Positions 12,213 to 61,700 are shown, counted from the first letter of the whole stretch. The stretch: DNA of 63,229 nucleotides, filler included, from Folioceros fuciformis (GCA_049999805.1; 11 parts of 11 records of this genome joined end to end with filler, not necessarily neighbours in it); one strand, 5' to 3'. The notes: generated by a model from the sequence alone, not told the origin. Numbers and translations are program-made.

Positions 12213-12312
12213 NNNNNNNNNNNNNNNNNNNNNNNNNNNNNNNNNNNNNNNNNNNNTTAATTAATTAANNNNNNNNNNNNNNNNNNNNNNNNNNNNNNNN
12301 NNNNNNNNNNNN
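12213..12312. other. Artificial scaffold spacer N44-TTAATTAATTAA-N44 (also at 20565-20664, 23665-23764, 36318-36417, 39576-39675, 42861-42960, 49881-49980, 56022-56121, 58397-58496, 60387-60486)
   Basis: The identical 100-bp linker with stop codons in all six frames recurs 10 times, and genes are cut off at these linkers. Confidence 0.98.
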
Positions 12313-16331: not shown

Positions 16332-17390
16332 CTAAGGCTTGAGAATCCGCTTGATGTCCTGTCGTTGCGAGTCTGTCAAAGAATTCGGAAATTCCACTTC
16401 GAAAGTCACGAAGAGGTCCCCTTTTTTGAGACTGTCATAGATAGGCATGCCCTCCGATTTGAAGCGCCTTACCTCCTTCGGCTTTGTAATACCTTTAGTA
16501 CCTATACTAACCAAGTGCCCATCCAGATGTTTAATCTGCTTCTCAAAACCAACCAGCGCATCCAAAAGTGAAATGGTGACACTTGTCTGTAGGTTGTTGC
16601 CATCCCTTTGAAACGTTTTGTGAGGCCGGATTCGAATGACGAATTTGAGGTCGCCAGGTTCTCCATCCACAATAGGTTCACCGTCTTCGTAGAAAGTCAC
16701 CTCCTGCCCCTCCTTCATTCCCTTTTCTACATCTACTGTCACAAACCCTCCTTCCCTCTCGAACTTCACATTAGGGCACTCATCGCACACAGCCTGAGTG
16801 TACTGTTGAAACATCCCCGGACCAATCTGCCTATGAAACACCTGGTTCTTGCAGTTGCATTGCCGCTTTCCAGGTGCAGGCTTCAACACATTCTTCTCCC
16901 TCCAGATCTTGTGCGAACTCCCGATGTAAAGATCCTCCAAGGTAGCGTACAGCTCAACCACAACATCATCCCCCTTAGGCGTCTTCTCCTCCTCCTCCTC
17001 TCCATCCCCAAATCCAAACCTCATGCCCGAGCCCCCGAAGAACTGCGAAAAGATATCGTTGGCAAAATTGCCTCCTCCGCCTCTGCCACCTTGCTGGTGA
17101 TGTTGCTTCAGGCCCTCCTCTCCATACTGGTCATAGATCTGCCGCTTTTCCTTATCGGACAAAACTTCGTACACGTTGTTTATCTCCGCGAACTTCTTAG
17201 TGGCTTCCTCTCCCGGATTCTTGTCAGGATGATACTTCAGAGCAAGCTTTCGGTACGCCCTCTTAATCTGGTCCTCCGAGGCCCCCTTCGGCACTTGAAG
17301 CACATCATAATAGCTCTTCTTTGCTAGCGCCTCTAGGTGATAGCTACAGAGCAGCAAAGCTAGCAGAAGGATAGACCATGGGCGCTCCAT
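16332..17390 (-). CDS. ERDJ3B: ER-luminal DnaJ/Hsp40, ERdj3B/DNAJB11-like, intronless, 352 aa
   Basis: Signal peptide; J-domain KSYYDVLQV...[14 protein letters not shown]-rich region; [11 protein letters not shown]...QIGPGMFQQ...[12 protein letters not shown]; DnaJ_C domain [18 protein letters not shown]. Confidence 0.93.
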
Positions 17391-18281
17391 GTCCTCAGCG
17401 GCTCACCACCCTACCTCGAGCTTCCGCAAAAACTCACTGCAGCAAAGAACCGTCAACAACTCTCAATTCCAAGGGTTTTAGCGTCCACTGTCATGCAAGC
17501 CCTGGCTTTCACAAAAGAAGATACACACATAGCAGCAGCCGATTGCATCCAAAAATCCCCTCCCCACGCCCAAACAAACCGGAACTTCAGCTGGAAGCAG
17601 GACAGTGCTCACCAGCACCGAGGAGTCACCGGTTGTACAACTCTGCATCTAGTCTTCGTTTGCCGCAAGAGTAAACTCATATCAGAATGACGAGACACTC
17701 ATCGCTCTCCCGCACAGAAGCAGCGTGTGTAGCAGCGTCCACACAGACAAAAGAACTCCCGAGGCTCCCGATGTCTTCTTCGAGGCCCCGGGACGCGAGC
17801 CTTCTTCGGTTGAGCGTCAAGGAAAGGCACAATACCATTTCGACGTCACGGTGGAGTCGTTGGCCACTACCATTTCGCCAACTGGCGGAAAGTCTCTTTA
17901 TTGAATTAAAGTCGAGAAAAATAAATGATTTGCACATTGCACAGGACCTCTGGTATGGCTTCGCGACGTCTACTTGGTAGTCAGTAGAAGATACATACCT
18001 GACGAAAGGAACTATCTACGAGTGTACCAACCGGTGATGAGACTACTTACGCCAATGAGACGTCTCATGAATTGCATACAGACCTAACGTATGATGTTCC
18101 ATCATCCCTTAGGTCTGCCTGTCTAAGGAATGGTGGGGCTAGTTGGCGTGCGGTTCTTGGCCCTAGAGTGGGTTGGTCGTTATGTTTTAGGGCATATGGG
18201 TTGTCTCGTTCTTTTTTATTCAAGTTCTTTTTTCAGTTGAAGAGTACTATCCTTCATGGCGAAGACAGGTACTCCAGTGAT

Positions 18282-20564: not shown

Positions 20565-21135
20565 NNNNNNNNNNNNNNNNNNNNNNNNNNNNNNNNNNNN
20601 NNNNNNNNTTAATTAATTAANNNNNNNNNNNNNNNNNNNNNNNNNNNNNNNNNNNNNNNNNNNNAGCTGATCCCGCTGAATAAGCTACCATTTTCAGGCT
20701 AGGTTCCGGCTACTGATCCCACTCCTTCCCACCTCCTCTCTATCTTTCCCATTGCTTATGCTCCTTCCCTAGAGGCTGGCTCAGCCACCAAGGGTGAACA
20801 GGTGCAGGGGAAGACTCAGCGGGCGACCATCCAGCAAGGAAGAGGCAGCGTCCATAGATCTTTGAAGATTAGACATCCTTTGAAGTCTCAAGGTAGTCTA
20901 AGAGGTGGTAGATCCTTGTGGTGGTAGGGCCAGGAGCTCANNNNNNNNNNNNNNNNNNNNNNNNNNNNNNNNNNNNNNNNNNNNNNNNNNNNNNNNNNNN
21001 NNNNNNNNNNNNNNNNNNNNNNNNNNNNNNNNNNNNNNNNTAGTCTAAGAGGTGGTAGATCCTTGTGGTGGTAGGGCCAGGAGCTCATTGGTGGCAGGTT
21101 GTGCTAGAAGTCTAAATAAGTGGCTGGTGACAGCC

Positions 21136-23664: not shown

Positions 23665-23764
23665 NNNNNNNNNNNNNNNNNNNNNNNNNNNNNNNNNNNN
23701 NNNNNNNNTTAATTAATTAANNNNNNNNNNNNNNNNNNNNNNNNNNNNNNNNNNNNNNNNNNNN

Positions 23765-25777
23765 GTCGACCGGCTTGAACGATTGGGCATCGCTCGCTAC
23801 TTCAAGAACGAGATCAGGATGTGCCTGGATTATGTCGACAAAGAATGGTCGGCAACTGGTCTGGCTTGGGGGAGAGGTTCCACGGTCACTGATCTGGATG
23901 ACACTGCCATGGGCTTCCGGCTGCTTCGCAAGCACGGATACGACGTCTCTCCAGATGTTTTTCTGCCATTCAAGAGGGACAACCAGTTTTTTTGCTTTGC
24001 TGGTCAGTCGGGGCAAGCAGTGTCGGGGATATTGAACTTCTACAAAGCTTCGCAGACATTGTTTCCTGGAGAGACTTTGCTGGAGGGGTCTCGAACGTTT
24101 TGCCGCAATTTCCTTGAGGCAAAGTGGCATGCCAACGAAGTCTACGACAAGTGGATGATGACCAAAGACCTGCCCGGAGAGGTGGAATATGCCTTGAATT
24201 TTCCCTTCTACGCCAGTCTGCCTCGGATTGAGACCAGAGCTTATCTGGACCACTATGGTACCAATGACATCTGGATTGGCAAGACACTTTACAAGTAAGT
24301 CGGATTCCAAGTTTCCAGTGAATGGCACAGCATTGTCAGCATACAATGGCTAACGCTGCTCCTTATCAGAATGCGTTACCTTCACAACCCAACACTCCTA
24401 GCATTTGCCAAGGCCGACTTCAACCTTTGCCAGAAGCGATATCAGCAGGAGCTTGAGCATCTTGTCAGGTATGGATGCGTAAATATTGCGCAAAAGCATC
24501 ATGACTTTCAAGGGCTAAGAGCTTTGCGTGGATGTAGAAGTTTGTGACGTCCGCACTCAAGGTCCTGTCGATGATGCCGTCATTGTGGACAACTGCAGAT
24601 GGAATGAGTCAGCGGATTTTGCACAGCTTTCTTTCGCGAGGCAGAAGGTGGTGGAGTGCTTCTTCGCAGCTGCTGCTACCATGTACGAGCCGGAGCTGAA
24701 CAGCGCTCGGAGAATTTGGGCTCAGATGGGCGTGCTAACTACTGTGCTGGACGATTATTTTGATACGGGCACTCCCCTTGTGGATCTTCGGCGGTTCAAA
24801 GCAGCTGTAGATAGGTAAGGATACATTCCAACATTTCTTGTCCTGAGGCCCTTGGAGGCCTTTTGGAAGCTTGTGATAAACAAGTGCCTGCTATGCTTGC
24901 AACGTCATCGCAGCTGGGATCCATCTTTAATTGACATCAAGAACGAAAGGCAGAGGATCACATTTATGGGTCTGTACAACACCATTAATGGCATAGCTGC
25001 TGAAGGGTATCTGGCTCAAGGCCGAGACGTCAGCAGGCATTTTATCGGCTATGTAAGATTCCAAACCTTTGGAACTGAAAGAGTAGGCTAGGTGCACGTG
25101 GAGGTCCATCCTAATGTGATCTTGGGCATCTTCGTGGGTGCAGTACAAACGGTGGATCGGCTCCTGTTTAGTGGAGGCTGAGTGGGCAGAAAAGCAAGAG
25201 ATTCCCCAGTGGGAGGAATACATGATCAATGCGGAACCATCAATTGCCCTGGAGTGCGTGATGCTGCCGCCCATCTTTTTTGTGGGTGAGGAACTGAGCG
25301 ACGAGGTGTTGGAGGGAGAGGAGTTTGTGAGGCTCACAAAGATGGTGAACATCATTGGCCGTCTCCTGAACGACATTCAAGGTTACAAGGTGGGTAATCA
25401 AGTTCCTCATCTCCAGATGCTTCATTTGGAGGCTCTGTTACACGTCACCGACTAGGTTTTTCACACCCAAGCTATTTCTTGCTTTGCAGAGAGAAGCTGC
25501 AGAAGGAAAGGCCAACAGCGTGATTATTCGAATGAGGGACCATCCTGGAGCCAGCGACGAAGAGACGATGGCTACTCTCTGCAAGATAATTGACACCACT
25601 ATGCAGGAATTGACACTTGAGGTATTTCAGGCCTCGGAAGTTCCACAGGCTTGTAAGGAGGTGCTCTACCACATGGCCAGAGTCATGCATCTTTTCTACA
25701 AGGATACCGACGGCTTCAGCTCCCTCACAGCCATGAAAGAGCATGTCAAGAAACTGCTTTTCGAGCCCGTTCTCTAG
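23765..25777 (+). CDS. Bifunctional class II/class I diterpene synthase (CPS/KS-type), 5'-truncated; exons about 23765-24294, 24370-24468, 24599-24814, 24914-25052, 25144-25389, 25490-25777
   Basis: Class II motif DLDDTAMGFRLLR; FFCFAGQS; DKW...KDLPGEVEYAL.FP.YASLPR.E.R; AKADFN.CQ; class I motif TTVLDDYFD; NSE/DTE motif RLLNDIQGYKRE..EGK.NSV. Splice phases are compatible. Confidence 0.92.
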
Positions 25778-36317: not shown

Positions 36318-37198
36318 NNNNNNNNNNNNNNNNNNNNNNNNNNNNNNNNNNNNNNNNNNNNTTAATTAATTAANNNNNNNNNNNNNNNNNNNNNNNNNNN
36401 NNNNNNNNNNNNNNNNNTATAGTATCTCATGACAGACAAGATATAGTAAAAATCTTCAATTGATAATAACATGAATAATCCTAAACTCATCCTTCCGTGG
36501 TGAGCTATGGGTTATATGTTATGGTTAGTATGTTGGATTATATATATATTTTGGTTGTACTTAGATCATATACATATTTACATAATTCATTGAGGGTTTT
36601 TTTAAGGTTGCAATTAATATATTTGAAAAAATGAGATGAAAAAATATATTACCCTTAAAGAAGGAGATAAATCATGATAGAATTTCTAAATCTAAGAGAT
36701 AAATATGATAGGAACATAGAAATACTATGGGAGATAAATTATAGAAGAATACTAGAGGGGATAAATTATGATAGAATACTAAGAGAGATAAATAAACCAT
36801 GATAAGAACGTAGGAGAGATTTAACTCTAAGCCTAATCCATGATAGAAACACTAAGGAGGGATTTAATCCTAAGCCTAATGACTACAAGTCGTAAGGAAT
36901 GTTGTCCCAATCCTCTATTAATATACTCAACACCTCAACAATTGGTCGTCGTCAGCAAGATACTCGCAATCCAGGGCCGCTATTATGCAGAAGCCGGTGC
37001 CTTGCGATTGTGACTCTATGCAATTGGCTGCCTCCAGCCTTCAAATTCCATCCTGTGCGTCCTAGTGAATTGTGCTTTCCATTTTCAACAATGGTTACTA
37101 TCTATACTCTTCCGGGGAACGGAGCGTTTTCCTACCTGTCGACACTTGGAGGATGGTCCAGGCTTCACCCATTGTTAAGCTTCAATGGTAGCGAACGG

Positions 37199-39548: not shown

Positions 39549-40114
39549 GTGGGTGACACAGTTCTTGTGCACAGCNNNNNNNNNNNNNNNNNNNNNNNNN
39601 NNNNNNNNNNNNNNNNNNNTTAATTAATTAANNNNNNNNNNNNNNNNNNNNNNNNNNNNNNNNNNNNNNNNNNNNACCTTTCTACTTTTAACTTTCACCT
39701 TATTTCACTTATGCCATTACTCGGCCTCCCTCTCTTTACCGTACGTACTCAAAATTTAAAAATACATATCGGGTCAATGAAATTAAACCCTTGACCACCA
39801 CTGCGAGAAGGCGATGCAGGGGCGGACGGATGCTTTGTTTGATATATTATTATGTCATGATGTGAGCTTTGACGCCTTGTGACAAAGTTGTCGTTTCCCA
39901 GGAGCTTGGGTCCAGAGGAAAAGTACAGCAGAGAGCCGGCAGATATCCGCCTCCATGTACCGGATAATGTGAGTCCGTGCCTGACGTAAATGTTCCCGGG
40001 AAGGGTGAGTGATGCGCTTGTGCGCTCGCGGTTTGAAGAGCGCAGACGAAGTCCGTATGCGTGGAGTTTGCTTGATGGTGGATTACGTTTTTGTGGTTTC
40101 GTGGAAAGAGGACG

Positions 40115-42333: not shown

Positions 42334-43915
42334 NNNNNNNNNNNNNNNNNNNNNNNNNNNNNNNNNNNNNNNNNNNNNNNNNNNNNNNNNNNNNNNNNNN
42401 NNNNNNNNNNNNNNNNNNNNNNNNNNNNNNNNNGGGTTAGACCTGAGACATGCCTTCCAAGAGACTGGGATACTATTTTTAAATAATATAATATTGTTTT
42501 TTTAAAATTCTGTCACATACCCCTTCCCTGGATACGATCCATAATCCTGTAATGAATCACAACTCCTGGTAAGGTCTCACTTCATTTGTTCAGAAACAGA
42601 GTGGTGCGAACGAAATGCCATGACCGGGGGGCACGAGATCTGGTGTTGGCGCGGGTGCCGTGTGCGCGATAGCACTTGGACTCTACCTCCAGTGGCGAAT
42701 TCCGGGTGCGTCTGATGGTGCCGAGACCGTGTGCTCATTACGTGATGGACTGGTGCGCTGCCGGGTTTGAAATTAGCGGCCCTCGGATCCATAAAATGGG
42801 GAGTCTCCTTGACAGGGAAACACGCTTGTGTTTGGCTTTGTGGCTTGAGCAAGATGGAGCNNNNNNNNNNNNNNNNNNNNNNNNNNNNNNNNNNNNNNNN
42901 NNNNTTAATTAATTAANNNNNNNNNNNNNNNNNNNNNNNNNNNNNNNNNNNNNNNNNNNNAGTAAAGGGCTTTTCAAATTCAAGGTGGTGAAGGGGACTT
43001 TCACGGCATGCTCATTGATTTTTTTTGGTTTAGGATTTGGTTAAAATCCTATTTATTTTTCAAGTGAAAAATCATATATTCTTCTTTCTTTTTTCAAGAC
43101 TTTTCTGAAAGTGTTTGTTAATTTAATTATGGATTCAAACTCGTGCAGAAAATGGTTTTAACATCATTTTGGGAGGCAAAGGTTTTTCAAGTAGAAAGGG
43201 GTTATGGCTAATATTCCATTTATTTTTCAAGAAAACTTTTATAAGGGTTTTTTTTAATTTAATTATAAACTCTGCTCNNNNNNNNNNNNNNNNNNNNNNN
43301 NNNNNNNNNNNNNNNNNNNNNNNNNNNNNNNNNNNNNNNNNNNNNNNNNNNNNNNNNNNNNNNNNNNNNNNNNNNNNCTGCTCATAGTTATTTTGTTACT
43401 CCGTGACAAATTCATGATGAAATTATTTTTTATTTCAATAATAAAAAATAAACGGTAAAACACAACTAAGGGGTACCTTAGTTGTGGGCCAAGGTGTTGA
43501 AGGGAGCAACAAAAGGTAAAAGTAGATCAAGCACACGAAGTATGTGTACAATCACGTGCACAAGAAAGTTCAAAATTGACTTATTTTATATACCTTATAA
43601 AATTGTCCGTTTTATCCAACACTACAGACAGATGACCTAACAATGATTAAACGCGGGCGTCCCCGACCTCAACCAGACATGAAGGTTGAATTTGGTCAAA
43701 GTTTCGGAGCCCAAGTAACTACCCAAAAAAGTTGTACTGATTGTGTCATTTGGCCGTCAGAGCAAGAGCAGTCAGAATCGGGACGTGCATGGGATTGCTT
43801 TCAAACGAGGGGAGGGGCAAAAGACGCTTATGGCGTTTGGATGTTAACCAGGCTGCACCGACACGTGCATCTACTTTCGCGTGCTTTACATGGTTTCCCA
43901 CAGAAGGCATACGTC

Positions 43916-46900
43916 TCAGGCAGAGCCCACGTGAGGGCACACCATGACAGACTTCCCTGGCACAGGGGGACTTCGTCGCTCTTGTCGACCTCCACCCTGC
44001 TTCAGTTCCACATTATGCTCTGCATCACCCACAACCAACACAGTTTTTCCTGTTGATGGAGGGGCAGGTTTCAGAGGCGCTTTCACACTATCCACATGTT
44101 TCCCACTGCCCTCCTGCTCAGCGGCCTCCAATTGTGCTATCTCATCCGGAAAGTTCAGACGGGCTCCTCTTCCACACTTCCTATACACCATTTTATCATA
44201 AGCACGTGCTGCCACCTCTGGAGAATCAAAAATTCCAATGTAGATGTGCTTTCTTGTTTTCGGCTCATACATCTTCACCTTGAAACGTCCACTCGGTGTG
44301 ACCTGCACACCTACATAGGGAGATTTGCTTGGCTTAGGAGTGAGGGACAAGTTGCTATAACTATCTTTTCCCTTACTGGCTGGTCCTTCGCTTTGGCAAG
44401 ATGTCCTTGAGTCTGTTGGCACCTCCGGTGTGTCGTCAAGAGATTGGTGGCTGTCTTTCCCTCTCTCTGACATCGCCCGCCGCTTAGATGTTGTCTTGTA
44501 CACCTTCGCATACTGAGAATCCACGTAATAATCACCATCAACAACAAAAGCTTGTCTTAATGCTCTTTGTGATCCTTTCCCTGATCCTGATGCTGACCCC
44601 CGCCTCTTGTCAGGAACCTTTGCCTTTTCACAGCTTTCTCTGCTACTTGGTCTGGCGATATTTCCACTGGGCTTCTTACTTAATTTTGCCACCTCTGTAG
44701 GAGGAGAATCTAATGAATGCCTGACTAAGCACTTATCATTATTCTGTGTAGGAATTGTAGCCTCCAATTCGGACCCATGATCTTCTGATTCCTTTTTTTC
44801 TACCGTTGAATTAGGCAGTGGACCACCGCCCTCCACCTCCCTCCCAGAGGCCATCTGGAAATCATCTCCTAAACCTCTGCCTGGCAAGCGTTCTGCCAAC
44901 CACGATGCAATCTGATCCTGCTCCTTATTCTTGTCTTTCTCGCCCTTATTGTCCTTGGAGGACTGTGAAATGTAGGACATATCCTGCGAACTGGTAGCAC
45001 TTGCTGCATTATCAGTTAATGTCTTCTCACTTCCTGATATACCATGCCCTTCACTTGAACTCTCATCCAGCAAACCACTTGTTCTCAAGGAACCGGACTT
45101 TTCACTATTGGTGACCTGTCCTTCAGAAATTCTATCAGAATGTCGATCCTCTGTGGCTCCATGACTATGGTGATCGCTTCCCTCCCTAAGGCATTGGCTG
45201 TCATGACGTGGTTCACCAGAGAAAACCACGGCATTTAGTGTCGACTGATCCTCAACTTTCAGATGTGAAGCCAAGATGGCTGATGTTTCCTTCATACCAC
45301 ACAAGTTGACCTCCACCTGATTTACACTAATCTCGTGTCTTGGTGTTGTGCTCAGAAGTACATATTTTTCTGACACCAGGCAACTTTCACTGCTATTATT
45401 ATCCTTGGCTCCTCTGACACTAGTTGCACGCAGATTTGCAACTCCATTCGTACCCTCAGCTACATCGTCTTGCACCGAGAGCAAACTATCGGCAGCCTCC
45501 CCCTCCCAGCTTGAAAATTCAGGGCAGCGACCCCCTGTTACTGGAACATCTGTGACCAACTGATCCACCATGGTTCCTGCGAGGTCGGGGACACAAACAA
45601 TACCTTTGGACCGGGCCTTTTCCTCAGGTCTTCCGTTCAGGTCTTTGCCATCTGCTGTTGTCCTATGCGGACAAGAAGGACTAGAATGTTTGGAGCCAAG
45701 CTTTCCACAGCCGCCATTTTCATTCTTCCGGACATGTACATCAGCGCCAGTTTGGCTGAAATCACCTCTCAAGATCACTCGTGAATCTCCATTCACTTCT
45801 TGCACAATGTCCTTCCGCCCATGCACAGTTGAATTCACTGTCTGCACGTCACTTGGATGATTCTCATCACCTTGAGTTGAGTGTGGTCTCTTGTCAAAGG
45901 CTTCAACAGGGGCAGCATTCAAATATCCCATGTTCTGTGGCTGGTCCTCCACTAGTAACGAACAGCCAGGGGATACAACAATCTTGTTCACCTTGCTAGC
46001 CGTGCTTAACGAAGTATCATCTACACTTGACGCATTCAACAACTTCCGCTTCCTTGAAGCGTCTTGCGGAATAACAGAGAGCTCATTACACAGTTCAGTT
46101 GCTTGGGAACCAGCCACGCCACCTGTTTCCACTGTAGACGGTAAAGAGTCGTCTTCTGATTCCTCCCTGACAAAATTGGTCTTAGCTCTCTTGCCCCGAA
46201 ACATGCGTGCTGCATCATCATAGGCATGAGCAGCTGCTTCCTCGGTGTCAAATGTTCCCAGCCATAACCGCTTTCCATCTGGAGTTCGAATCTCTGCGCC
46301 AAATGCACCCCATGGCCTCTTTCGTACACCCACAAACTTGGAGAAAAAGATACGCCTACCATGACTTTTCCCTGTACTTGAGAGTTCCTTTAGAGATGAG
46401 ATAGCTTTCTTCATCGCTGAGAATTTATTTTCATGTACTGAGCACAGTAAACCCATGGTTGTCATATCCAGGCCTCCAATGTCGATGATGGTTGGAAGGT
46501 GAATTTGGTGCTGGTTTACCTTAGACACCGTTCCCTTTACCTGTGATACATAGGGCAAACATGCCAGGCCCACTCTAGTCAAATCCATTGAGCCGATGTC
46601 TACACAGCAAGGAACCGAAAGAGGCACACCATGCTTCCTTTTGTCTTGCGAAAGTGTGATGCCGGTATTTTCTGTTCTATGCTGTGCTGTTCTCAGTGGT
46701 GAAACTGCACAAGCCTTGTTAGTAATACAAGGCGTAACCATTGTGCAATTTTCCAGACTTGCAGCTCCCGATTGCTTTTCTTGAAAGCCCTTGACTACTA
46801 GGGATCCAGGTGCTCTCCGTTGCAACTTTTCTCCATTTGAAGATGGCATGCTTTTACCTCTGTAGAGTGTAAGCATTTTTTTCCTGGCTGAAGACAGCAC

Positions 46901-49693
46901 ATCCAGGTCGGGGAGGTTCCCTGCCTGTTTGACCTGTGCATGTTCCTTATGGGGGACCTCGGTTCCTTGACTTTGGTGATCTGGAGGCAGGCCTTTCGGT
47001 GCCACTTGATTCACAAGGTGTTTCCCTGGAGAGTCAAACTGCATAATGACTGGCGCGTCAACCACCTCCACATGGTGAGCCACTGTTGCAGCCAAAACCA
47101 TCAGCGTATATTCACCACTCGCATTCTTCTCTGGATGCAGCAATTTTGATGAAACTTGAGGTGATGTCACATGGGCGGGAACCTTGTGCATCTGACAGAA
47201 TCTGTAACAGGCATGCACAAAGACTGTGTCAGAGAGTGCGCGTAACCGTGAGACACAATCCATGCAGGGTAAACAGCACCGACTTGGTTGCTTTGAACAT
47301 TCAAAGCCTTTTTGGAGTTGATGACAGAGATAACCTGACTTAAGGAAGACCTACTCATGCAGCATCCCACAATTCCTCAACAAAAGACAGGAGACTTGAA
47401 AATAACCAGTGTGCATTTACCCTTGCGTACAGACGAAGGGCCTGGCCAAGGATACCATCAGCCTGACACTGTTCAAGGGTCTTCAGAAGTAGCAGAAACA
47501 GACCTGGTGTCTCGAGTGCTCAGGAATACAGAAAACTTGCAACGGCTTTGTGTAGAGTTGTCAATGTATTCACATTGTCTGTAGGGAGCAGAAGAGTCCT
47601 CGAGAATATGCTGCATGCAGAATTCATATCCATGCACAGCATACTGCAGGCATCTTTGCTTGTCTGACTGACAGAAAAGGGTGCCGTTAGGGGAAGACAA
47701 TTTATGCCCTCCCTTGAACTGGACTCGGAAGCTGTTGGGATTGTAAGAACGCAGGTGAAATCCTTCATTCCCTGCAGATTTGACAAAGTCATTTGAAGGA
47801 CTGCCTTTTGTGCCATTCAAGCTATCTTTTGCTTTATCACTTTCATCTGCTGCTAGCAAACACTTGGCACTTTGTTGACTACAAAGGGCACCAACTTCAG
47901 CTTTTGCTGTTGTAAGCAAATTCATATCAGTCCTTTTCTGAGGCTTCCTTGATTTCTTCCAGCTGAGAGGTTCGCCTTGACTCTCTTCCAAATCCTCCGA
48001 CTTCTCCTCTTTTGAGCAACCTAATTCGGCCTCAACAAATTTGCGCTTGCGTCCAGAATTTTCATTATTCAGGAGTAGACTTGCAATCGACTCTGAGGGT
48101 GTGTCGGTTTCCAAAGAATATTCTACCTGCATGGTGTTCCACAATAAGTTTCAGTTCTGCAGGGCAAAATCTTCCAGTACCACTCAGCTTTGAGATGAGA
48201 TCTATCTCACCTCCTGCGAATGGATACCCTTCATCTTGTTCCGAGAGAGAAACCTGACCTTGAACAGGTCAGCTGATATAATTTCAAAGAGTAATACATC
48301 CCCAATTTCTCCATCGTGATGCCCGACAAAAGCTGGCCATCCATTTGTAAGCGCAAGTCTGCGCCCAGATTGCTCCCAGGCGCTCCAATCAGTCTTCCAC
48401 CTGTGGCCCTGTGAATCCTCAAGAGTAACCTGCCCCTTTGATCCTTGGAGGAAAGTAGACATGAACATGACAGGGAAGCACTGCAGCAGGATGATGCTGT
48501 TAACATTCAGATTGAAAACCAGGAAAGGTGTTCACATTGTATGCTTCGTGTGTCATGAAGCGTACAAGCTGACAAAATTGTCTAGATTTTCATCAAACAG
48601 CAGAGCTGAGTGAAAGAGATTTACCAACTTCCCATTTGGACCGATTGATCTGCGCTGAAGAGCCCTTGCAAAAGATGGACTCTTGGTGACGACATCTCGG
48701 ACAAGCCTTGTGACCATCTTTCTGTTTGGGCTAAGGCGCCCTTCCCCAATGTAAGGGACATAACCTTGCTTGCAAACCCTTGGCAAGTCTGTTTTCAAAC
48801 GACGACTACCACCCACAGATGCCTTCACTTGATAGGGTTTCTCATTTACGCCCTGAAGATGCAATGGGCACCAGAATCCACTTAGACCTTATTGATGACA
48901 CTGTCAAAAAGCTGCCTCGCTTGAAACAAACGTTTTCTTAGACTCAACAATGTCAAGGAGGCATACAGTGGCCACAAAGGGGTCTGTCAAATACCCTTGT
49001 CTTTTTAGCAGGAAGCGACCAGCCCTGTTTTGTCCAATTCAGATGCAACCTCGTGCGCAGGTCATCTGTCAGTTCAATTTTCCTCGAGCCATGGCAAGAT
49101 GAGACCTGCTTCATATCCACAGACCCAAAATGAGAACCTGCTGGCCCTAGCACATTCTCCAGCTCGATTGTCTTCTGGCACTCAATTTGACCGGAGCCTT
49201 ACCAGAACCTTCTTCCTCCCAGAATCCAAAACAATCCGTCCTGGCCACCAGCAGTTATCTGTGTATACGTCCACAAGATCACCGGCCTCCCATTCCTCTT
49301 TCAGAAGCCTCACCTTCCTGGGAACTCCGTCGCGGGACACAGACATGATCTCATCTGGAGGCTTGGGTCGAATAGATGGGTTGTGATAACCATCCTTGCA
49401 GTCATAACCAGAATCTTCATGCGTGATCCACTCACTAGCTGCCGAGCCAGGAGCACAGACAGTTAGATGCCCTCGCAGGTTCTGAGACGATCGTACAAAG
49501 ATTTATATCAAATCTAAGACCTCCTGTCACAACAGCGAGTGCCCACATGCATATACATCAACAAAAGTTGAGAACGCCTTGTTAACGACAAGAACCAGCT
49601 TGACAAACGGTGAAATGAAGACTCACGCTCGTCTGGAACACAGGGGTAGCACACGTAATACCGGACTTCCTTTTGCCTGTCCACTTTCAAAAC
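43916..49693 (-). CDS. Multidomain chromatin/transcription protein Agenet-Agenet-B3-zf-C3Hc3H-AP2-AP2, at least 1590 aa, 5'-truncated; exons 49693-49627, 49438-49203, 49105-48995, 48852-48625, 48480-48259, 48126-47504, 47201-43916
   Basis: Agenet: IRPKPP...[20 protein letters not shown]...LRTRLHLNW...W. B3: PSFARAL...L.FP..F...VTLED..G.RW...W...[12 protein letters not shown]....GDVLLF. zf-C3Hc3H: C.....C..YA..G..FC..HILED..APY.QC.Y.......C...RFC..H. AP2-1: [17 protein letters not shown]...[17 protein letters not shown]...RG..AKTNF. AP2-2: YVGV...SGRF......[18 protein letters not shown]......G..A.LNFP. All six introns are GT-AG and frame compatible. Confidence 0.8.
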
Positions 49694-50403
49694 CTGCGTA
49701 GTACCCAACAAATACGAGGTCAACAACCCACCAAACTCAGTACAAGCTCAATACTTAAAACAAAACAACCGAGAGACAAAAGATTCCGAATGGCATACAG
49801 GCCGCTAAGACCAACCCCCACTCCAGGTCGGCACCGTTCACGCACCTTGGCATCCACCCAGACCTTCCGATTCTCATTCTNNNNNNNNNNNNNNNNNNNN
49901 NNNNNNNNNNNNNNNNNNNNNNNNTTAATTAATTAANNNNNNNNNNNNNNNNNNNNNNNNNNNNNNNNNNNNNNNNNNNNCGCCTTACTGCCACCAGCCT
50001 GCACTGACTGTCCCAGCTTCAGTGAGCTTGACAAATGAGAGTAGCATTGTGTGGATCCCGCTGCCTGCGCAATGCCGATCCCAGCCTGGAGTGGTAGGAT
50101 TGCTTGCTAGGACGGGACGTGCGCTAGGCTGCTCGTCACAGTGCCACTCGCGCTGCGAATGCCAGTCTGACAGCGTCACCTTTGTCCCATCAACGTATCG
50201 CTTGCTGCCGGATTCGCTCCATCTGTCGTGTCTTAGACCTGTGTGTGTGCTTCTGTGTCCGTATCCGTCTCCGTGTGTCCGTGTCGCTGTCACTCACTGC
50301 CGTGACGCAGCCGCTCTCTGGATCGTCACTGCTTGGCTTGGATACCCGCCTCATCACAGCCTCACCAAATCTGCACTGAGTACCGCAGATTGACATCGAC
50401 GAC

Positions 50404-53400
50404 ATGAACCACAGCTACGGCCGCAGCCTGCACATGCTGCACCAGCAGCACCCGGATTCCTGCTTCTCCCAGGTCTTGGATTCCAACACCGATTTCCAGC
50501 AGATGTTGGGGGATGTCGGGGGGGACGCCGGCCCGCCCTCCTACTCCAGTCTGCGGGAGCACGGAATGGGGCACGGGCAGCAGGATGTGGAGCCGGAGCA
50601 GTGCTTCGTCTCCATGCCGTCCTCCAACACCTGCTACGGTAACCCGTCGCACTCGCAGGGGGGCTCACCGGCCACGCCCCCCCCGCAGACCTGCCCATGG
50701 CCCCAATTTCAGACCTCGGACGTGCTCATGGCGGGGCATGGCCAGGGCTACGGGGACATGAATCCGCTGCACCAGCACAGGAACGGAGGATCCGAGGCCG
50801 CCGGGCTCGGCCCCGCCATGGATCAATGCTCACTCTCTTCTGATCAGGCCGGCCTGATCGCCAACAACAATCCCTCCCACATTAGCGCTCACCACCAGCG
50901 GATTTCAGCTTCCCGGGAGGAGATGTGCTCTGAGATGGGAGATTGGTGCGGGACTCCCCACCAACAACAACAACAGCAACAACAACATCAGCAGCAGCAG
51001 CAAATGCTGGATTCCGGCATGCGCTACCTCCCTCCCGTCTCCATGCTCGCTCCCGGTGGGAACGGGGCCAGCCCAAGAGTGGCCGGAGGGGCAATGCCCA
51101 TGTCCGTGGGCGGCTCCGCCAACCCCGTCGCCAGGATGCTCAACATGTCTCACATGGCCAGCAACAGCTCCACCACCACCAACAACACCACCAACAACAA
51201 CAACAACGCCGCCAACAACAACAGCAACAGCGTCGTCGTGCCCATGAGCGGTGGATTCCCGGGCAGCAATCTGCTTCAGAACCCCCCTGGCCTGCTGGCC
51301 GGGGGGGGAATGATAGCGCAGGAGGGAGGAGGAGTCATGAATCCCGGAGCTGCCTTCATTCCCCGCCATGGCCACCACCCTCTGGCGACAAGTCCCACTA
51401 CCCACAATTCCTTCCAGCTCTTCAATCCGGCTGCGGTGTCGGCGGCCATGGACAGGGTGCTCAACAGGGCGGGAGGCTGGATGGGCCAGACCGTCGACGG
51501 GGGCCAGGGGAACATAACCCACCTGCAGGGAGGTTGCGCGGCGCCCGGAGTGCGCCTCGCCACCTCCCACTGCCTGGCGCAGTTCTCCTCCGACCCAGGC
51601 TTCGCTGAGCGGGCTGCCCGCTTCTCCTCCTTCACCAATGCCAGCCGGCCCGGGCCCGGAGGCAATCTGGCTATGGAGGTGCGCACTCAGCAATCCCGGA
51701 GAGCCTCGCCGGTCAAGTCCGCCCAGCAGGATGCCGGGGAGGGCTCCAGGCTGTGGAGGACCAACAGCTGCCCGCCGCTCAGCACAGATCACCTGCAACA
51801 ACCCAATGCCCAGCCCAATGCCGCCCAGGAGAGCAGCAAACCAGCTGCTTCCGAGGCGGCAACCAACTCTTCCGGCTCGAATGCCCCCGCCTCCATGGAG
51901 ACGGAGCAGAGAAGCCCCTCTGCTTCTACCGCCACAGAGTCGCAGAGCCAGCGGGGTGCGGTATCCGACAAGAGACGGACTGTTCCCGCTAGGAACAGCG
52001 CCGGAAAGCGGCTCGCCAGAACCTCCAGCTGCCCCTCCACGGTGGCCAAGCTTCCCTTGGACGCTGTGGTGAAGGTGGAGGAAGGATCAGAGCAGCAGAA
52101 GGAGTCCAGCGATGGCCCTGAGGATTCCTCCAGCTCCGACCAGGACAAGGAGGGCTCCAGTGACAGCCAAGGCAAGAAGAGGAAGTCTGAAGACAAGATC
52201 TCTGCCTCCTCCAAGAATGCAGCTGACAACGGCTCCCGCTCTCCATCCACACCTGCCAAATCTGCCAAGGTGAGTGTTTCCATCCCACTCAGGCTACGAA
52301 GTGCTGCTCCTCTGTGCTGTTTGGATGCAGAGTGGCTTCTAAACGCAGGACTCAATGCTGTAACTGTAGAACGAAGACGCTCCTGCTGCGAATCCCAAGA
52401 GAAGTCGAGGAGACAAGGACACCAAGAGCTGCGGCGATTCCGGAGACAGCACTAGTCCTGGACCAGCCAAGGAGAGCAGCAAGCCGCCTGAGCTTCCCAA
52501 GCCCGACTACATCCATGTTCGTGCTCGGCGTGGGCAGGCAACCGACAGCCACAGTCTCGCTGAGAGAGTGAGTCATCGCTCGCTCTCTAGTCCTTCCCCA
52601 TGACCTTTTCACACACATCCTTTGCAAGTGCCAAGCGTGATGTCATGGCTTCTTACGTCTCTACAGGTGAGGCGTGAGAAAATTTCCGAGCGCATGAAGT
52701 ACCTTCAAGATCTTGTCCCAGGCTGCAGCAAGGTATGTTTCTTGCGGCTCTCAAGCTTCCTCCCAGTTCCAACGAAAAACTGTGAGGATGCCCATGAGTC
52801 CCACCGATCTCGTTGGCTCATGAACATCCGTTGTTGTCCATGTGCTGTTTAAACAGGTTACTGGCAAAGCTGTGATGCTGGATGAAATCATCAACTATGT
52901 GCAGTCCCTACAGCGGCAAGTGGAGGTGAGATTTCTTGGACATGCATGCCATTTGTAATCCACACACTCGAGGCACTAGGTAGCGGTGGATCTTCGTTTT
53001 CCTGATCATGCTTTGTGCTGGTGTCGTGTGGATGCAGTTTCTTTCTCTGAAGCTTGCGGCCGTGAACCCAAGATTGGAATTCAACATGGACACCATCATA
53101 TCTAAAGAGGTTCGCACCCAACTGCTTGTCCCAATGCCCAGGCATCGTGGAGTGTTAAGCAGTCGCTAGTGGGGAGGCTGAAGAGGTTTTTTTGCAATGC
53201 TACAGATGTTTCAGCAGCAACGAAACTCACTCCAACATCAACCTCAACAGCATCACCTGATTATGGGCCATGACTCGATACCTATGCCGTCCCCATACCC
53301 GACCCACCTCCTGCACCAGCACCCAATGGCCATGCAGATGGGTGCCACCTGCGCCATGGACATGAGGACCATGGGGGCTCCCTATGACGCACTGAGGAAG

Positions 53401-55692: not shown

Positions 55693-56121
55693 CCAGCACA
55701 AAAAAAAAACGCACACCTTGGCAGGCAGGCGTGCTGCCACGCAGGGGCGAATGGCCGGGAGCCAGAACCTGGGCCGATTTTGGGGACAGGGACAGGGACA
55801 GGGGCAGGGTCGGGGTCCCGGTCCGGGTCTGGGTCAGCGGCCGGTCCCCATCCCGGTCACAGGCCGGCCCAGCCACCAGGGACACGCACAATGAATGCAC
55901 CAGTGAAGCACCGACGTCCGGCTTCAGACGACGACGACGTCGGACGTCGGGAAAGATGCCCTAGTCGGACGGATTGCGGGTCAAGTGTTTAACGGCCCAC
56001 AACGGGCCGGTGCCGGAGTTGNNNNNNNNNNNNNNNNNNNNNNNNNNNNNNNNNNNNNNNNNNNNTTAATTAATTAANNNNNNNNNNNNNNNNNNNNNNN
56101 NNNNNNNNNNNNNNNNNNNNN

Positions 56122-58396: not shown

Positions 58397-59044
58397 NNNN
58401 NNNNNNNNNNNNNNNNNNNNNNNNNNNNNNNNNNNNNNNNTTAATTAATTAANNNNNNNNNNNNNNNNNNNNNNNNNNNNNNNNNNNNNNNNNNNNTTCG
58501 CTTAACGACCTAAACTATGCATGACGCCGGGATACGGGCTAGTCAAGGGCAACCTATCTCGCTACCCCCCCACTTAGACTATAATCCCGCCGTCGTGAAC
58601 CTCACATGTGCCGTAATCCGCGCCGTCTCTTAGCTTGCACATACTCTCCGTCTGCAGATCGAGTTGTAGCTATGCTAAGTGTTGGCGGAATTTCGCACTT
58701 GGACGACAGCTTTATCCTGCTGCTCCTGCTTGGGCTGCTAGTCTGTGTCGCCACCTGGGAGCAGAAAAGATTTTCCGGGAGGAGTTCAAGGCTCCAGAAG
58801 GCTGGGAGACTTGAGCTTGGCAGGGAGGAAAGGCTGCGCCACAGGATGAGGATGTCGCATGCTCAGCTCCGGCAGCTCAAGGGATTGTCTCCTGCTTCTT
58901 GTCTTTAGGTATGCTCCGTTTTGGAGATGCCCTGAGGTGGCGGCNNNNNNNNNNNNNNNNNNNNNNNNNNNNNNNNNNNNNNNNNNNNNNNNNNNNNNNN
59001 NNNNNNNNNNNNNNNNNNNNNNNNNNNNNNNNNNNNNNNNNNNN

Positions 59045-60222
59045 GACTACAAGGCCCAAACCTTCACAGTGCGCGGTATGGCGCTCCTTAGTCAGTGGTT
59101 TTGTGAACAAGTCAGCAAGTTTCTGGTCTGTAGGTACGTAGACCAGGTCTATCTCACCTGAGTCCACGGTTTCTCTAATGTAGTGCTGCTTCACTGCAAT
59201 ATGTCTTGTTCTGGAGTGGTGAACTGGATTTCTGGATAGGGCAATGGCCGATTGATTGTCACAGTAGATGGTTGTGGCTCCAGGTTGTGAAAACCCTACA
59301 GAGGCCATAAAGCGCCTGTTGTAGACTGTTTCCTGAGCAGCTGAGGTTGCGGCTGTGTATTCAGCCTCAGTGCTGGAGAGGGCCACCACTGTCTGCTTCT
59401 TAGATGTCCAGCTGACTGCTCCTCCAGACAGAATGGTGCAATTTGCAGTAATCGACTGCTTGGAGTCCTTGTCACTGGCCCAGTCGGAGTCAGAATAACA
59501 GATAAGTAGCGGGAACTTCCCTTGCGATTTGTATCTGATGCCGAGATATTGTGTGCCCTTGAGGTAACGCAGCACCCTCTTAACTCCTGTCCAGTGTGCA
59601 TTGCCAGGATTTGCCAGGAACCGCGAGAAGATGCGAGTAGCAGGGGACACATCATGTCTAGTCCATCCACTAATCCATATTAGACATCCAGTTAACATGT
59701 TGTAAGGCTTCTTTTCCATCTCTTGCTTTTCAGCATCCGTCTTTGGACTTTGTTCTATAGAGAATTTCTCTCCCATAGCCATGGGAGTGATGGCGGGCTT
59801 ACAGTCTACCATCATGAACCTCTCTAGCATTTGCCTTATATAATGAGCCTGGTGACAGAGTATACTTCCCTTATTTGGACTAATGAATATCTGTACACCT
59901 AGAAAGAAGGTGAGCGGACCCAAGTCCGTCATAGAGAATTCAGCCGTAAGAATAGACTGAACCTTCTTCATTGTGTCAGGGGAGTTAGCAAATATCAATG
60001 CATCATCAACATATAGTGCTAGAATGGCAAATGTCTGCCCTCCTCTAAGGATGTACACATTTGTGTCTGCATCACTCTGACTGAATCCTGACTGGATCAG
60101 GTAGGCGTGTATCTTCTTATACCATACTCTTGGTGCCTGTTTCAGGCCATACAGGCTCTTTTTTAACCTGCATACTTTATGAGGTTCTTTCTTACTAACA
60201 TATCCTTCTGGCTGTGTGATAT
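59045..60222 (-). mobile_element. Ty1/copia reverse transcriptase-RNase H (open frame), interrupted at about 60223 by a TGTTG-starting LTR-like sequence
   Basis: QPEGY...VCRLKKSLYGLKQAPRVW, ALYVDD, DLGPLTFFLG, YSDSDWA, VALSSTEAEY, IYCDNQSAIAL..NPVHHSRTRHI, QKLADLFTKPL. Confidence 0.95.
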
Positions 60223-60591
60223 TGTTGAGTTATCGAGCTCTATATGAGCTAAACTCATGTGGTGTTAGTTATCCCAGTTGGGTTCATACTAGACTAGTTC
60301 TAGTTATTAGTGAACTTAGGATAGTGTAGATTATCCCACATTGAACCTGGAAGTTGTGTAGCCCTAAATGTACTACTTAAATGGAGNNNNNNNNNNNNNN
60401 NNNNNNNNNNNNNNNNNNNNNNNNNNNNNNTTAATTAATTAANNNNNNNNNNNNNNNNNNNNNNNNNNNNNNNNNNNNNNNNNNNNGCTATAAGGTTCAC
60501 CTGCCGTCTTCTTGCAGCACTCGTACTCGAAGTGCCTAGGGATCCTGCACGAGTTGCAGGGTCCCTTTGTAGTTCTTCGTTGCTGTTGTTG

Positions 60592-61700
60592 CTACTTATT
60601 TTCGTTGAAAGTCGGTTGTGTTCCAAATTGATGAACGGGCCTCCTTGTGGCAAGGTTTGGTCTGAGGCCGCCCCGTCTTCCGCCTGTACCTCGTGATGTG
60701 AAAAGAGCGTGACTTGGGCCTGCACTAAACTTGGGATTGCTTGCATGGCTTGATTCTTCCTCCAGCAAGGCTCCCACGACTTCTGAAAGAGTGTAAGCTG
60801 GTACTCCTCTAGATGCCGCTGCCTGAATTGACTGCCGCAAGACAGAGTTCTGAGAACTGATGAAAGTTCTGTAAGAGGGAGGAAGAGAAGTGAGTAGTGC
60901 GACGACTGCTTGCAACTCTGTGACAGTTGTGCCGCTGGCTACAAGCTTGGCCCGCAAGGACCTGAAGTTATGGATGTGCTGCTCCACAGTTTCGCCTTCT
61001 TTCATTTTCAGCGCATAAAACTAACGTCTGGCGTTGATTAGGGACATGAAGCTTTAACTTGGAACATGTCCTTGAAAACGCTCCACACTTCTGCTGAGGT
61101 ACTCTGACCTTGTGTGTGGGGTAGCATNNNNNNNNNNNNNNNNNNNNNNNNNNNNNNNNNNNNNNNNNNNNNNNNNNNNNNNNNNNNNNNNNNNNNNNNN
61201 NNNNNNNNNNNNNNNNNNNNNNNNNNNGTAAGAGGGAGGAAGAGAAGTGAGTAGTGCGACGGCTGCTTGCAACTCTGTGACAGTTGTGCCGCTGGGTGCA
61301 AGCTTGGCCCGCAAGGACCTAAAGTTATGGATGTGTTGCTCCACAGTTTTGCCTTCTTTCATTTTCAGCGAATAAAACTGACATGTGGCGTTGATCAGGG
61401 ACATGTAGCTTTGAGCTTGGAACATGTCCTTGAAAACGCTCCACACTTCAGCAAAGGTACTTTGACCTTGTGTGTGGGGTAGCATACTCTTTTCTAATGT
61501 AGAAATAAGAGTGTTGCGTGCTCTCTTGTCTTTCTTATGCCAGGCTGCAATCTTGTCAAGGGTTGTAGGAGGCACGGTAGTTATGGATGGTTGCTTTAGG
61601 GTTCTATCTACAACTGACATCAGATCATGCTCTTCTAAGAGCGCAGTGATGCGCACCTGCTATGCCTCAAAATCACTTTCGTCGAAGCGATCTTAGTCAC
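60592..61700 (-). mobile_element. Ty1/copia gag (UBN2-like) remnant, partly duplicated on both sides of an N gap
   Basis: W.KKDKRARNTLISTL...VWS.FKDMF...FYSLKMKEG.TVEQHI..F..L..KL...G.....L.SLPPSY. Confidence 0.85.

Follow-up and report, generated by a model that had tools for sequence, protein, structure and literature searches.

Plant proteins in which a B3 domain stands ahead of AP2 domains were described in 2019 by Zhang and colleagues (BMC Plant Biol; PMC6781369), who, in the available part of the paper, set them apart as a "new subgroup" of AP2/EREBP named after TcA3Bz1. According to that text, the same layout occurs in liverwort, moss and gymnosperm genes: the Marchantia polymorpha member PTQ32953.1 carries an Agenet domain N-terminal to B3, followed by zf-C3Hc3H and three AP2 domains, and the Physcomitrium members have the zinc finger and no B3. 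The clade, in which B3 precedes AP2 in the opposite order to that of the RAV family, is reported there as absent from angiosperms; the work is a sequence analysis only, and its available text offers no function. In the searchable literature we found no second description of this architecture and no functional study of any family member. For the N-terminal part of such proteins a close characterised system is AGDP1, which, as described in the available part of PMC6208443, binds dimethylated lysine 9 of histone H3 (H3K9me2) in an aromatic cage formed by Tyr122, Trp127 and Phe144, with Glu149 closing it. Here we analyze a stretch of DNA of 63229 bases, referred to as the window, in which positions 43916 to 49880 of the minus strand very probably hold a single expressed nuclear land-plant gene of at least eight exons, encoding a protein of at least 1617 residues that belongs to the B3 - zf-C3Hc3H - AP2 clade (TcA3Bz1 subgroup).

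Before splicing, the minus-strand open reading frames between 43916 and 49747 are disconnected, and an earlier note, made from the raw sequence alone, had proposed that they are nevertheless one gene joined through six introns. To identify transcripts of this locus, four coded public runs (X1-X4) were matched to the stretch, and their contigs were aligned on positions 43400-49880. Run X1 contains a fraction of 0.80 of the sampled words, which is near the share of the stretch taken up by exons, and provides a contig of 6366 nucleotides that is at least 99% identical to the window, while the contig of X2, with 5550 nucleotides, comes from a different organism and falls in the 90-95% identity class; runs X3 and X4 provided no contig that aligned to the stretch. 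A single X1 contig and a single X2 contig each span all seven joints (47201/47504, 48124/48209, 48480/48625, 48851/48994, 49103/49201, 49438/49627 and 49691/49844), and in doing so skip exactly the six proposed introns, together with one further upstream. The skipped segments are all CT..AC on the plus strand, that is, GT..AG on the minus strand in seven out of seven cases, with lengths from 5' to 3' of 152, 188, 97, 142, 144, 84 and 302 nucleotides and phases 0,1,0,0,0,0,2. The six canonical introns and the phases 1,0,0,0,0,2 given in the earlier note are matched exactly in the joined model, and the splice reasoning from raw sequence proved accurate. The joined frame is open over 1617 codons, with its stop codon at 43916-43918. 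The earlier expectation of one open frame of about 1590 codons ending at 43916 was correct as to its openness and its end; the codons from 49693 to the stop number 1606, and 1617 with the upstream exon, position 49693 being a splice acceptor rather than the start of the gene. The parts of the transcript are as follows.

49846..49880, minus strand: upstream coding exon, truncated where the assembly piece ends; its product ..NENRKVWVDAK belongs to the first Agenet domain (joint 49691/49844 with the cut at +2, GT donor at 49845, open frame)
49627..49693, minus strand: exon of 67 nucleotides, ending in phase 1 (contig joints and model)
49203..49438, minus strand: exon of 236 nucleotides, with the last part of Agenet 1 and the first half of Agenet 2 (joints; Pfam Agenet at 23.3 bits on the enclosing open frame)
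48995..49105, minus strand: exon of 111 nucleotides, second half of Agenet 2 (joints, model and alignment)
48625..48852, minus strand: exon of 228 nucleotides, conserved N-terminal extension and start of B3 (joints, model and alignment)
48211..48480, minus strand: exon of 270 nucleotides, main part of B3 (Pfam B3 at 45.5 bits)
47504..48126, minus strand: exon of 623 nucleotides, Ser/Glu/Lys-rich linker and most of zf-C3Hc3H (Pfam at 47.6 bits; joints)
43916..47201, minus strand: last coding exon of 3286 nucleotides, containing the closing CxxH of the zinc finger, some conserved motifs, AP2-1 and AP2-2 with a long, poorly conserved linker between them, and the stop (joints, Pfam and model)
43768..43915, minus strand: 3' untranslated region of at least 148 nucleotides, reaching the end of the X1 contig at 43768

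The gene lies within the assembly piece 42961-49880, and its 5' end is missing because this piece ends inside the gene: the sequence stops at 49880, and an artificial spacer begins at 49881. Comparison with the liverwort homologue suggests that the model lacks some 30 residues at the N-terminus of the first Agenet domain. A loose tblastn search of the window for the missing 5' exon, using the first 50-60 residues of the homologues P0022 (the liverwort protein) and P0006, returned chance-level matches only (best E 0.41).

Two further observations concern the contigs at this locus. A separate X1 contig of 172 nucleotides, located at 47206-47377 inside the 302-nucleotide intron and of low depth (2.2 vs 43.4), appears to be a trace of DNA or of unspliced RNA. 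In addition, window position 45616 is C in the window and T in both the X1 and X2 contigs, a difference that changes Ala1052 to Thr on the coding strand; it falls in an unconserved linker and could be an allele or an assembly error.

The domain order of the encoded protein is a tandem Agenet cassette, B3, zf-C3Hc3H, an ERF-type AP2, a poorly conserved linker of about 615 residues and a second, divergent AP2. This is the order read from the raw sequence in the earlier note (Agenet x2 - B3 - zf-C3Hc3H - AP2 - AP2), and it has the support of both Pfam and the homologues. In a Pfam scan of the seven unjoined open frames, in which bit scores were compared with the curated cut-offs, B3 reached 45.5 bits (cut-off 30.1), zf-C3Hc3H 47.6 bits (cut-off 27) and AP2 60.7 bits (cut-off 33.3), the last in two stretches; two of the seven pieces had no Pfam match. 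The positions of the domains are listed below.

49034..49878, minus strand: tandem Agenet cassette, with Agenet 1 incomplete (residues 1-61) and Agenet 2 at residues 82-136; the span holds three introns
48244..48756, minus strand: B3 domain, residues 207-304, with a family-conserved N-terminal extension at 182-206; the span holds one intron (Pfam, PDB search and alignment)
47186..47679, minus strand: zf-C3Hc3H, residues 465-528, split by the 302-nucleotide intron; homologues align across the junction in a single high-scoring segment pair
46172..46345, minus strand: AP2 repeat 1, ERF type, residues 809-866 (Pfam; ERF096 and AtERF1 at E ~1e-16)
44147..44323, minus strand: AP2 repeat 2, divergent, residues 1483-1541 (second Pfam stretch; best PDB match WRI1, E 2.3e-9)

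The B3 domain, together with its 25-residue N-terminal extension, is the best-conserved part of the family in the alignment. In a pairwise PDB sequence search, the nearest solved domains to the B3 exon were those of TEM1 (E 3e-5), NGA1 (9.5e-4) and RAV1 (1.1e-3), and neither FUS3 nor ARF gave a significant match. This affinity to the RAV/NGA group disagrees with the tree of PMC6781369, which, in the available part of that paper, places the B3 nearer to ARF. The zinc finger, once its exons are joined, has the pattern C-x6-C-x5-H-x4-C-x2-H ... C-x10-C-x13-C-x2-H, with the last CxxH coming from the final exon. The junction reads ...STRDTR before and FCQMH after the last intron, which splits the R codon 2+1, so the earlier observation that this intron completes the finger is borne out in the joined model. 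No solved relative of zf-C3Hc3H was found by sequence (0 PDB hits at E up to 10), and the nearest named Atlas clusters to the zinc finger of homologue P0006 are of KANSL2 type (0.89 and 0.86, to be read as leads only). One preprint, in the part available, names zf-C3Hc3H among domains with a potential link to chromatin remodelling that are without experimental structures.

The first AP2 repeat matches ERF096 (E 1.3e-16) and AtERF1 (2.5e-16) in the PDB, with matches ranging to 3.6e-16, and its alignment to ERF096 reveals the common motifs GVRxRPWG..AEIR and R.WLGTF. We take the positions of these motifs to include the DNA-contacting Arg, Trp and Glu of the AtERF1-DNA structure. Family-built profiles, run with filters off and E up to 10, detected exactly two AP2 repeats in the protein (residues 811-867 and 1485-1541). 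Outside the domains, basic RKRK clusters at residues 341 and 906 could be nuclear localisation signals. The repression motifs RLFGV and LxLxL were searched for in the protein and not found, and a single DLNxxP at residue 1043, in the unconserved linker, is probably a chance occurrence.

To place the gene in its family, we searched with the large exon, which retrieved 20 proteins among 8000 scored candidates. Precomputed Pfam annotation of these homologues gives B3, zf-C3Hc3H and AP2 together in 9 of the 20, zf-C3Hc3H and AP2 in 15, and AP2 only in 5, with E values to the proteins of the same layout between 1.2e-151 and 1e-25. The species-named homologues belong to Physcomitrium patens (3), Diphasiastrum complanatum (2), Ceratopteris richardii (3) and Adiantum (3), and are labelled as hypothetical, uncharacterised or AP2/ERF domain-containing. 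When the N-terminus of P0006 served as the query, P0021 of Cryptomeria japonica and P0022 of Calypogeia fissa, a leafy liverwort, were added; no angiosperm is represented among the 13 retrieved homologues that have a species name. When six homologues were rescanned, the order B3, zinc finger, AP2 was present in five (P0002 is without B3), and the Agenet of P0006 scored 21.6 bits, below the threshold. The joined model is colinear with its homologues: residues 5-304 align with P0006 at E 1e-55, and a single high-scoring segment pair, crossing the zinc-finger intron, matches model residues 465-905 to residues 400-858 of P0003.

A maximum-likelihood tree was built with 21 proteins, keeping 1156 of 3200 alignment columns; its sampling does not extend to the Taxus, Ginkgo and Marchantia proteins of PMC6781369. 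In this tree, the window protein and P0001 form a pair (support 100), joined next by the liverwort protein with a Shimodaira-Hasegawa-like approximate likelihood ratio test (SH-aLRT) value of 93, and this group is nested in a clade that also includes the mosses, the lycophyte and the gymnosperms. By the family profiles, AP2 repeats number 2 in the window, 3 in P0001 and the gymnosperms, 3 strong with weak extras in the liverwort, 4 in the lycophyte proteins, 2-4 in the moss proteins and 1-2 strong in the fern proteins. Judged by best matches, the window protein keeps the first AP2 repeat and one that is preceded by a conserved motif, and is without the intervening and C-terminal repeats. The repeat number thus varies among clear homologues. 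We place the gene in the B3 - zf-C3Hc3H - AP2 clade on homology and domain order, and not as a strict three-AP2 protein.

Several observations weigh against a single expressed member of this clade with the full set of domains, and should be considered together. The RNA nature of runs X1-X4 is guessed, none of them being on record as RNA. The 5' end and the start codon of the gene fall outside the model, the X1 contig reaching about 1.4 kilobases further 5'. In the Pfam check that the earlier note had proposed, B3, zf-C3Hc3H and AP2 stood above their cut-offs, but Agenet, on the window's own pieces, scored 23.3 bits against a cut-off of 27 and covered the first 37 of 61 profile positions, a low score that arises because an intron splits the domain; the same profile reached 30.8 bits in the Calypogeia homologue P0022. 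The exon piece 49203-49436 alone gave no significant hit in the PDB: E was 1.1 for AGDP3 and 0.12 for an unrelated xylosidase. At the positions equivalent to Tyr122, Trp127, Phe144 and Glu149 of the AGDP1 cage, the window has Thr, Trp, Ser and Arg. Finally, AP2-2 is without the ERF pattern RPWG..AEIR, and the TcA3Bz1 subgroup is characterised by three AP2 domains where the window has two.

We take the contigs to be mRNA because GT..AG introns are removed precisely from them in two organisms; their origin from a processed DNA copy is formally still conceivable. The contigs also bear on whether two adjacent genes, one with Agenet, B3 and the zinc finger and the other with the two AP2 repeats, were merged by read-through or in a chimeric contig. 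Assembled contigs may bridge neighbouring genes, and a contig across two genes does not demonstrate a single transcript; this merger is nonetheless already contradicted and retains almost no probability, given that the 302-nucleotide intron is cut exactly at GT..AG in contigs of two organisms, that the zinc finger requires the CxxH of the next exon, and that lycophyte, fern, liverwort and conifer homologues carry both halves in one protein and align unbroken across the junction. The 47504/47201 junction, which the earlier note had singled out for checking, is thus crossed by contigs of two organisms with no break. A decaying or non-functional copy of the family, its AP2 repeats partly lost and its C-terminus truncated, still transcribed but no longer a regulator, has some observations in its favour: two repeats are present here against three in the nearest relative P0001, three strong ones in the liverwort and four in the lycophyte proteins, the protein ends about 75 residues past AP2-2, and its branch in the tree is long (0.98). 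Yet the frame is open for 1617 codons over eight exons, and the domains score like those of the relatives (104 bits for AP2-1 and 86-90 bits for AP2-2 with family profiles). The relative of 90-95% identity keeps the same introns, and its listed indels all preserve the frame: of the seven X2 entries, all inside the linker at residues 1047-1356, five are of 3 nucleotides and two are single-base changes, 4 nucleotides apart, that compensate each other. Frame-keeping indels, a 1617-codon frame and relative-like domain scores argue together against a pseudogene, and we regard decay as highly improbable. A single expressed gene of the clade is the reading that we favour.

The N-terminal cassette of this gene raises the question of histone reading. 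For this part, model residues 4-304 align with residues 33-314 of the Calypogeia protein P0022 at 41% identity over 313 columns (E 1e-66). Searched against the PDB at E up to 10, residues 1-177 of P0022 gave six sequence hits, every one a tandem Agenet cassette from a plant, led by AGDP3 (E 1.5e-4) and AGD1-2 of Raphanus AGDP1 (3.9e-4) and followed by four weaker ones; two of the weak alignments span both Agenet domains. An AlphaFold model of the liverwort cassette, built from a three-sequence alignment, has a mean predicted local distance difference test score (pLDDT) of 44.1 and falls below 50 over residues 1-111. The confidently modelled segment (residues 103-165) forms a Tudor-like barrel that matches the Tudor domain of TDRD3 with Z 8.9 and a root-mean-square deviation of 2.2 over 55 residues, Z values of 7-9 being common background; AGD1-2 of AGDP3 matches the model with Z 7.7 over 115 residues, in the same background-level range. 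We conclude that the fold of the cassette is Agenet/Tudor-like.

Whether such a cassette, like those of AGDP1 and AGDP3 with H3K9me2, would read methylation on a histone tail and in this way steer the DNA-binding domains to a chromatin state is a separate matter, and we consider it distinctly unlikely. The N-terminus of the family is recognisably a tandem Agenet of the AGDP1/AGDP3/DUF724 kind, the confident part of the liverwort model is a Tudor-like barrel, and both the window and the liverwort retain the second Trp of the WW motif, all of which are consistent with histone reading. The pocket itself argues otherwise, with three of its four AGDP1 residues replaced in the window. The equivalents are Ile, Trp, Leu and Glu in the liverwort, and Tyr, Lys and Phe in the gymnosperm, where the Glu149 position is not mapped; the cage positions were carried over by hand through printed alignments, so that register shifts of one residue may have occurred. 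As these residues differ among members, the pocket is not conserved within the family. Moreover, the retrieved lycophyte and fern proteins are without the Agenet cassette, the structural model is poor (mean pLDDT as above) and its Z values of 8-9 stand at background level. Reading of H3K9me2 or another methyl-lysine in the manner of AGDP1 thus appears unlikely for the window copy, and the coupling of histone-mark reading to DNA binding proposed in the earlier note is weakened because the AGDP1 cage residues are not conserved in the window.

Regarding function, the single gene described here would encode a sequence-specific transcription factor with several independent domains for binding DNA. 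A GCC-box-like site is the best guess for the target of AP2-1, because its ERF-type motifs include the DNA-contacting residues, and different motifs are the probable targets of B3 and AP2-2. Contacts with chromatin or with proteins would probably come from the Agenet cassette and the KANSL2-type finger; recruitment of a remodeller by the finger, suggested by its KANSL2/INO80D type, is speculation. A broader proposal, which we advance tentatively and judge rather unlikely, is that the clade represents an ancient land-plant regulator, ranging from bryophytes to gymnosperms, in which a non-canonical Agenet cassette and a KANSL2-type finger would tether a protein of the three-DNA-binding-domain type to a chromatin state or to an NSL-like or INO80-like complex. 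If true, the protein would combine the roles of reader and sequence-specific recruiter, as no characterised plant transcription factor does, and the two-AP2 copy of the window would be a natural reduced version showing which repeats are dispensable.

The gene provides a transcript-supported addition to a little-known clade of very large plant transcription factors, and our searches extend the reported range of the clade to a lycophyte, ferns, a conifer (Cryptomeria) and a leafy liverwort, across which the AP2 number runs from one to four or more. The architecture is not in itself new: the earlier note had taken it to be undescribed, a claim that falls, on the note's own terms, with the 2019 report, as seen in the available part of PMC6781369, and the pocket residues do not support the coupling of histone reading to DNA binding. 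A clade for which searchable papers report no function is a fair target for knock-outs in Marchantia or Physcomitrium.

The remainder of the window offers no genomic context for this gene. Its 63229 bases consist of 11 assembly pieces (1.9-12.6 kb) joined by 10 identical artificial spacers, each made up of 44 N, TTAATTAATTAA and 44 N; 11 more runs of 100 N lie inside assembly pieces. Since the artificial spacers join separate pieces, gene neighbourhood across them is meaningless, and genes beyond 49880 are not genomic neighbours of the multi-domain gene because its piece ends there. The spacers and the other open frames that we noted are the following.

12213-12312, 20565-20664, 23665-23764, 36318-36417, 39576-39675, 42861-42960, 49881-49980, 56022-56121, 58397-58496 and 60387-60486: the ten artificial spacers
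1050-2108, plus strand: by eye, a homeodomain-like and then a leucine-zipper-like stretch, possibly HD-Zip
16332-17402, minus strand: uninterrupted 356-codon frame with no intron, an ERdj3B-type DnaJ protein; best named match Marchantia paleacea at 71% identity, and a transcriptome protein at 85%
23717-24298, plus strand, at the start of a piece: by eye, a partial plant terpene synthase
50380-52455, plus strand, in the next piece: 691-codon frame with Gln and Asn runs in a region of 63% G+C; by eye, similar to the N-terminal portion of a plant transcription factor
58877-60229 and 60592-61659, both minus strand: by eye, reverse-transcriptase and gag parts of a copia-type retrotransposon

In the frame at 23717-24298, we take the motif DxDDTA to be that of a terpene synthase, an assignment that, if right, fits a land-plant origin.

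Compared with the systems introduced at the outset, the protein is closest to the TcA3Bz1 subgroup. Its B3 (residues 207-304) lies N-terminal to zf-C3Hc3H (465-528), which in turn lies N-terminal to AP2 (809-866 and 1483-1541); an Agenet domain precedes B3, as in the Marchantia member; and the Calypogeia, Cryptomeria, Diphasiastrum, Ceratopteris and Adiantum homologues with this layout align along their whole length. The link to the Taxus, Ginkgo and Marchantia proteins themselves is drawn through these homologues of other species. With AGDP1/ADCP1 and AGDP3, the protein shares two consecutive Agenet domains, the group to which every PDB hit of the liverwort N-terminus belongs, but it differs from AGDP1 in having no equivalents of Tyr122, Phe144 and Glu149, in having one cassette rather than three, and in the fusion of that cassette to DNA-binding domains. 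The zinc finger resembles that of KANSL2/INO80D (PF13891) in its 47.6-bit match and in the full Cys/His pattern seen once the exons are joined, and no similarity was found outside the finger. Likewise, AP2-1 resembles AtERF1 and ERF096 (E 1.3e-16 to 3.6e-16, with RPWG..AEIR and WLGTF present), while ERFs are small proteins with a single AP2 and here the repeat is part of a protein that exceeds 1600 residues and has further DNA-binding domains. RAV1 and TEM1, AP2 plus B3 transcription repressors of the RAV family, also combine AP2 and B3 in one protein and, with NGA1, provide the nearest solved B3 domains. However, RAV proteins have one AP2 N-terminal to B3 and no other domains, whereas the protein of the window has B3 ahead of two AP2 repeats, carries an Agenet cassette and a zinc finger in addition, is about five times longer, and contains neither RLFGV nor LxLxL. 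The contrast with RAV drawn in the earlier note, in both the reversed order and the additional domains, therefore stands.

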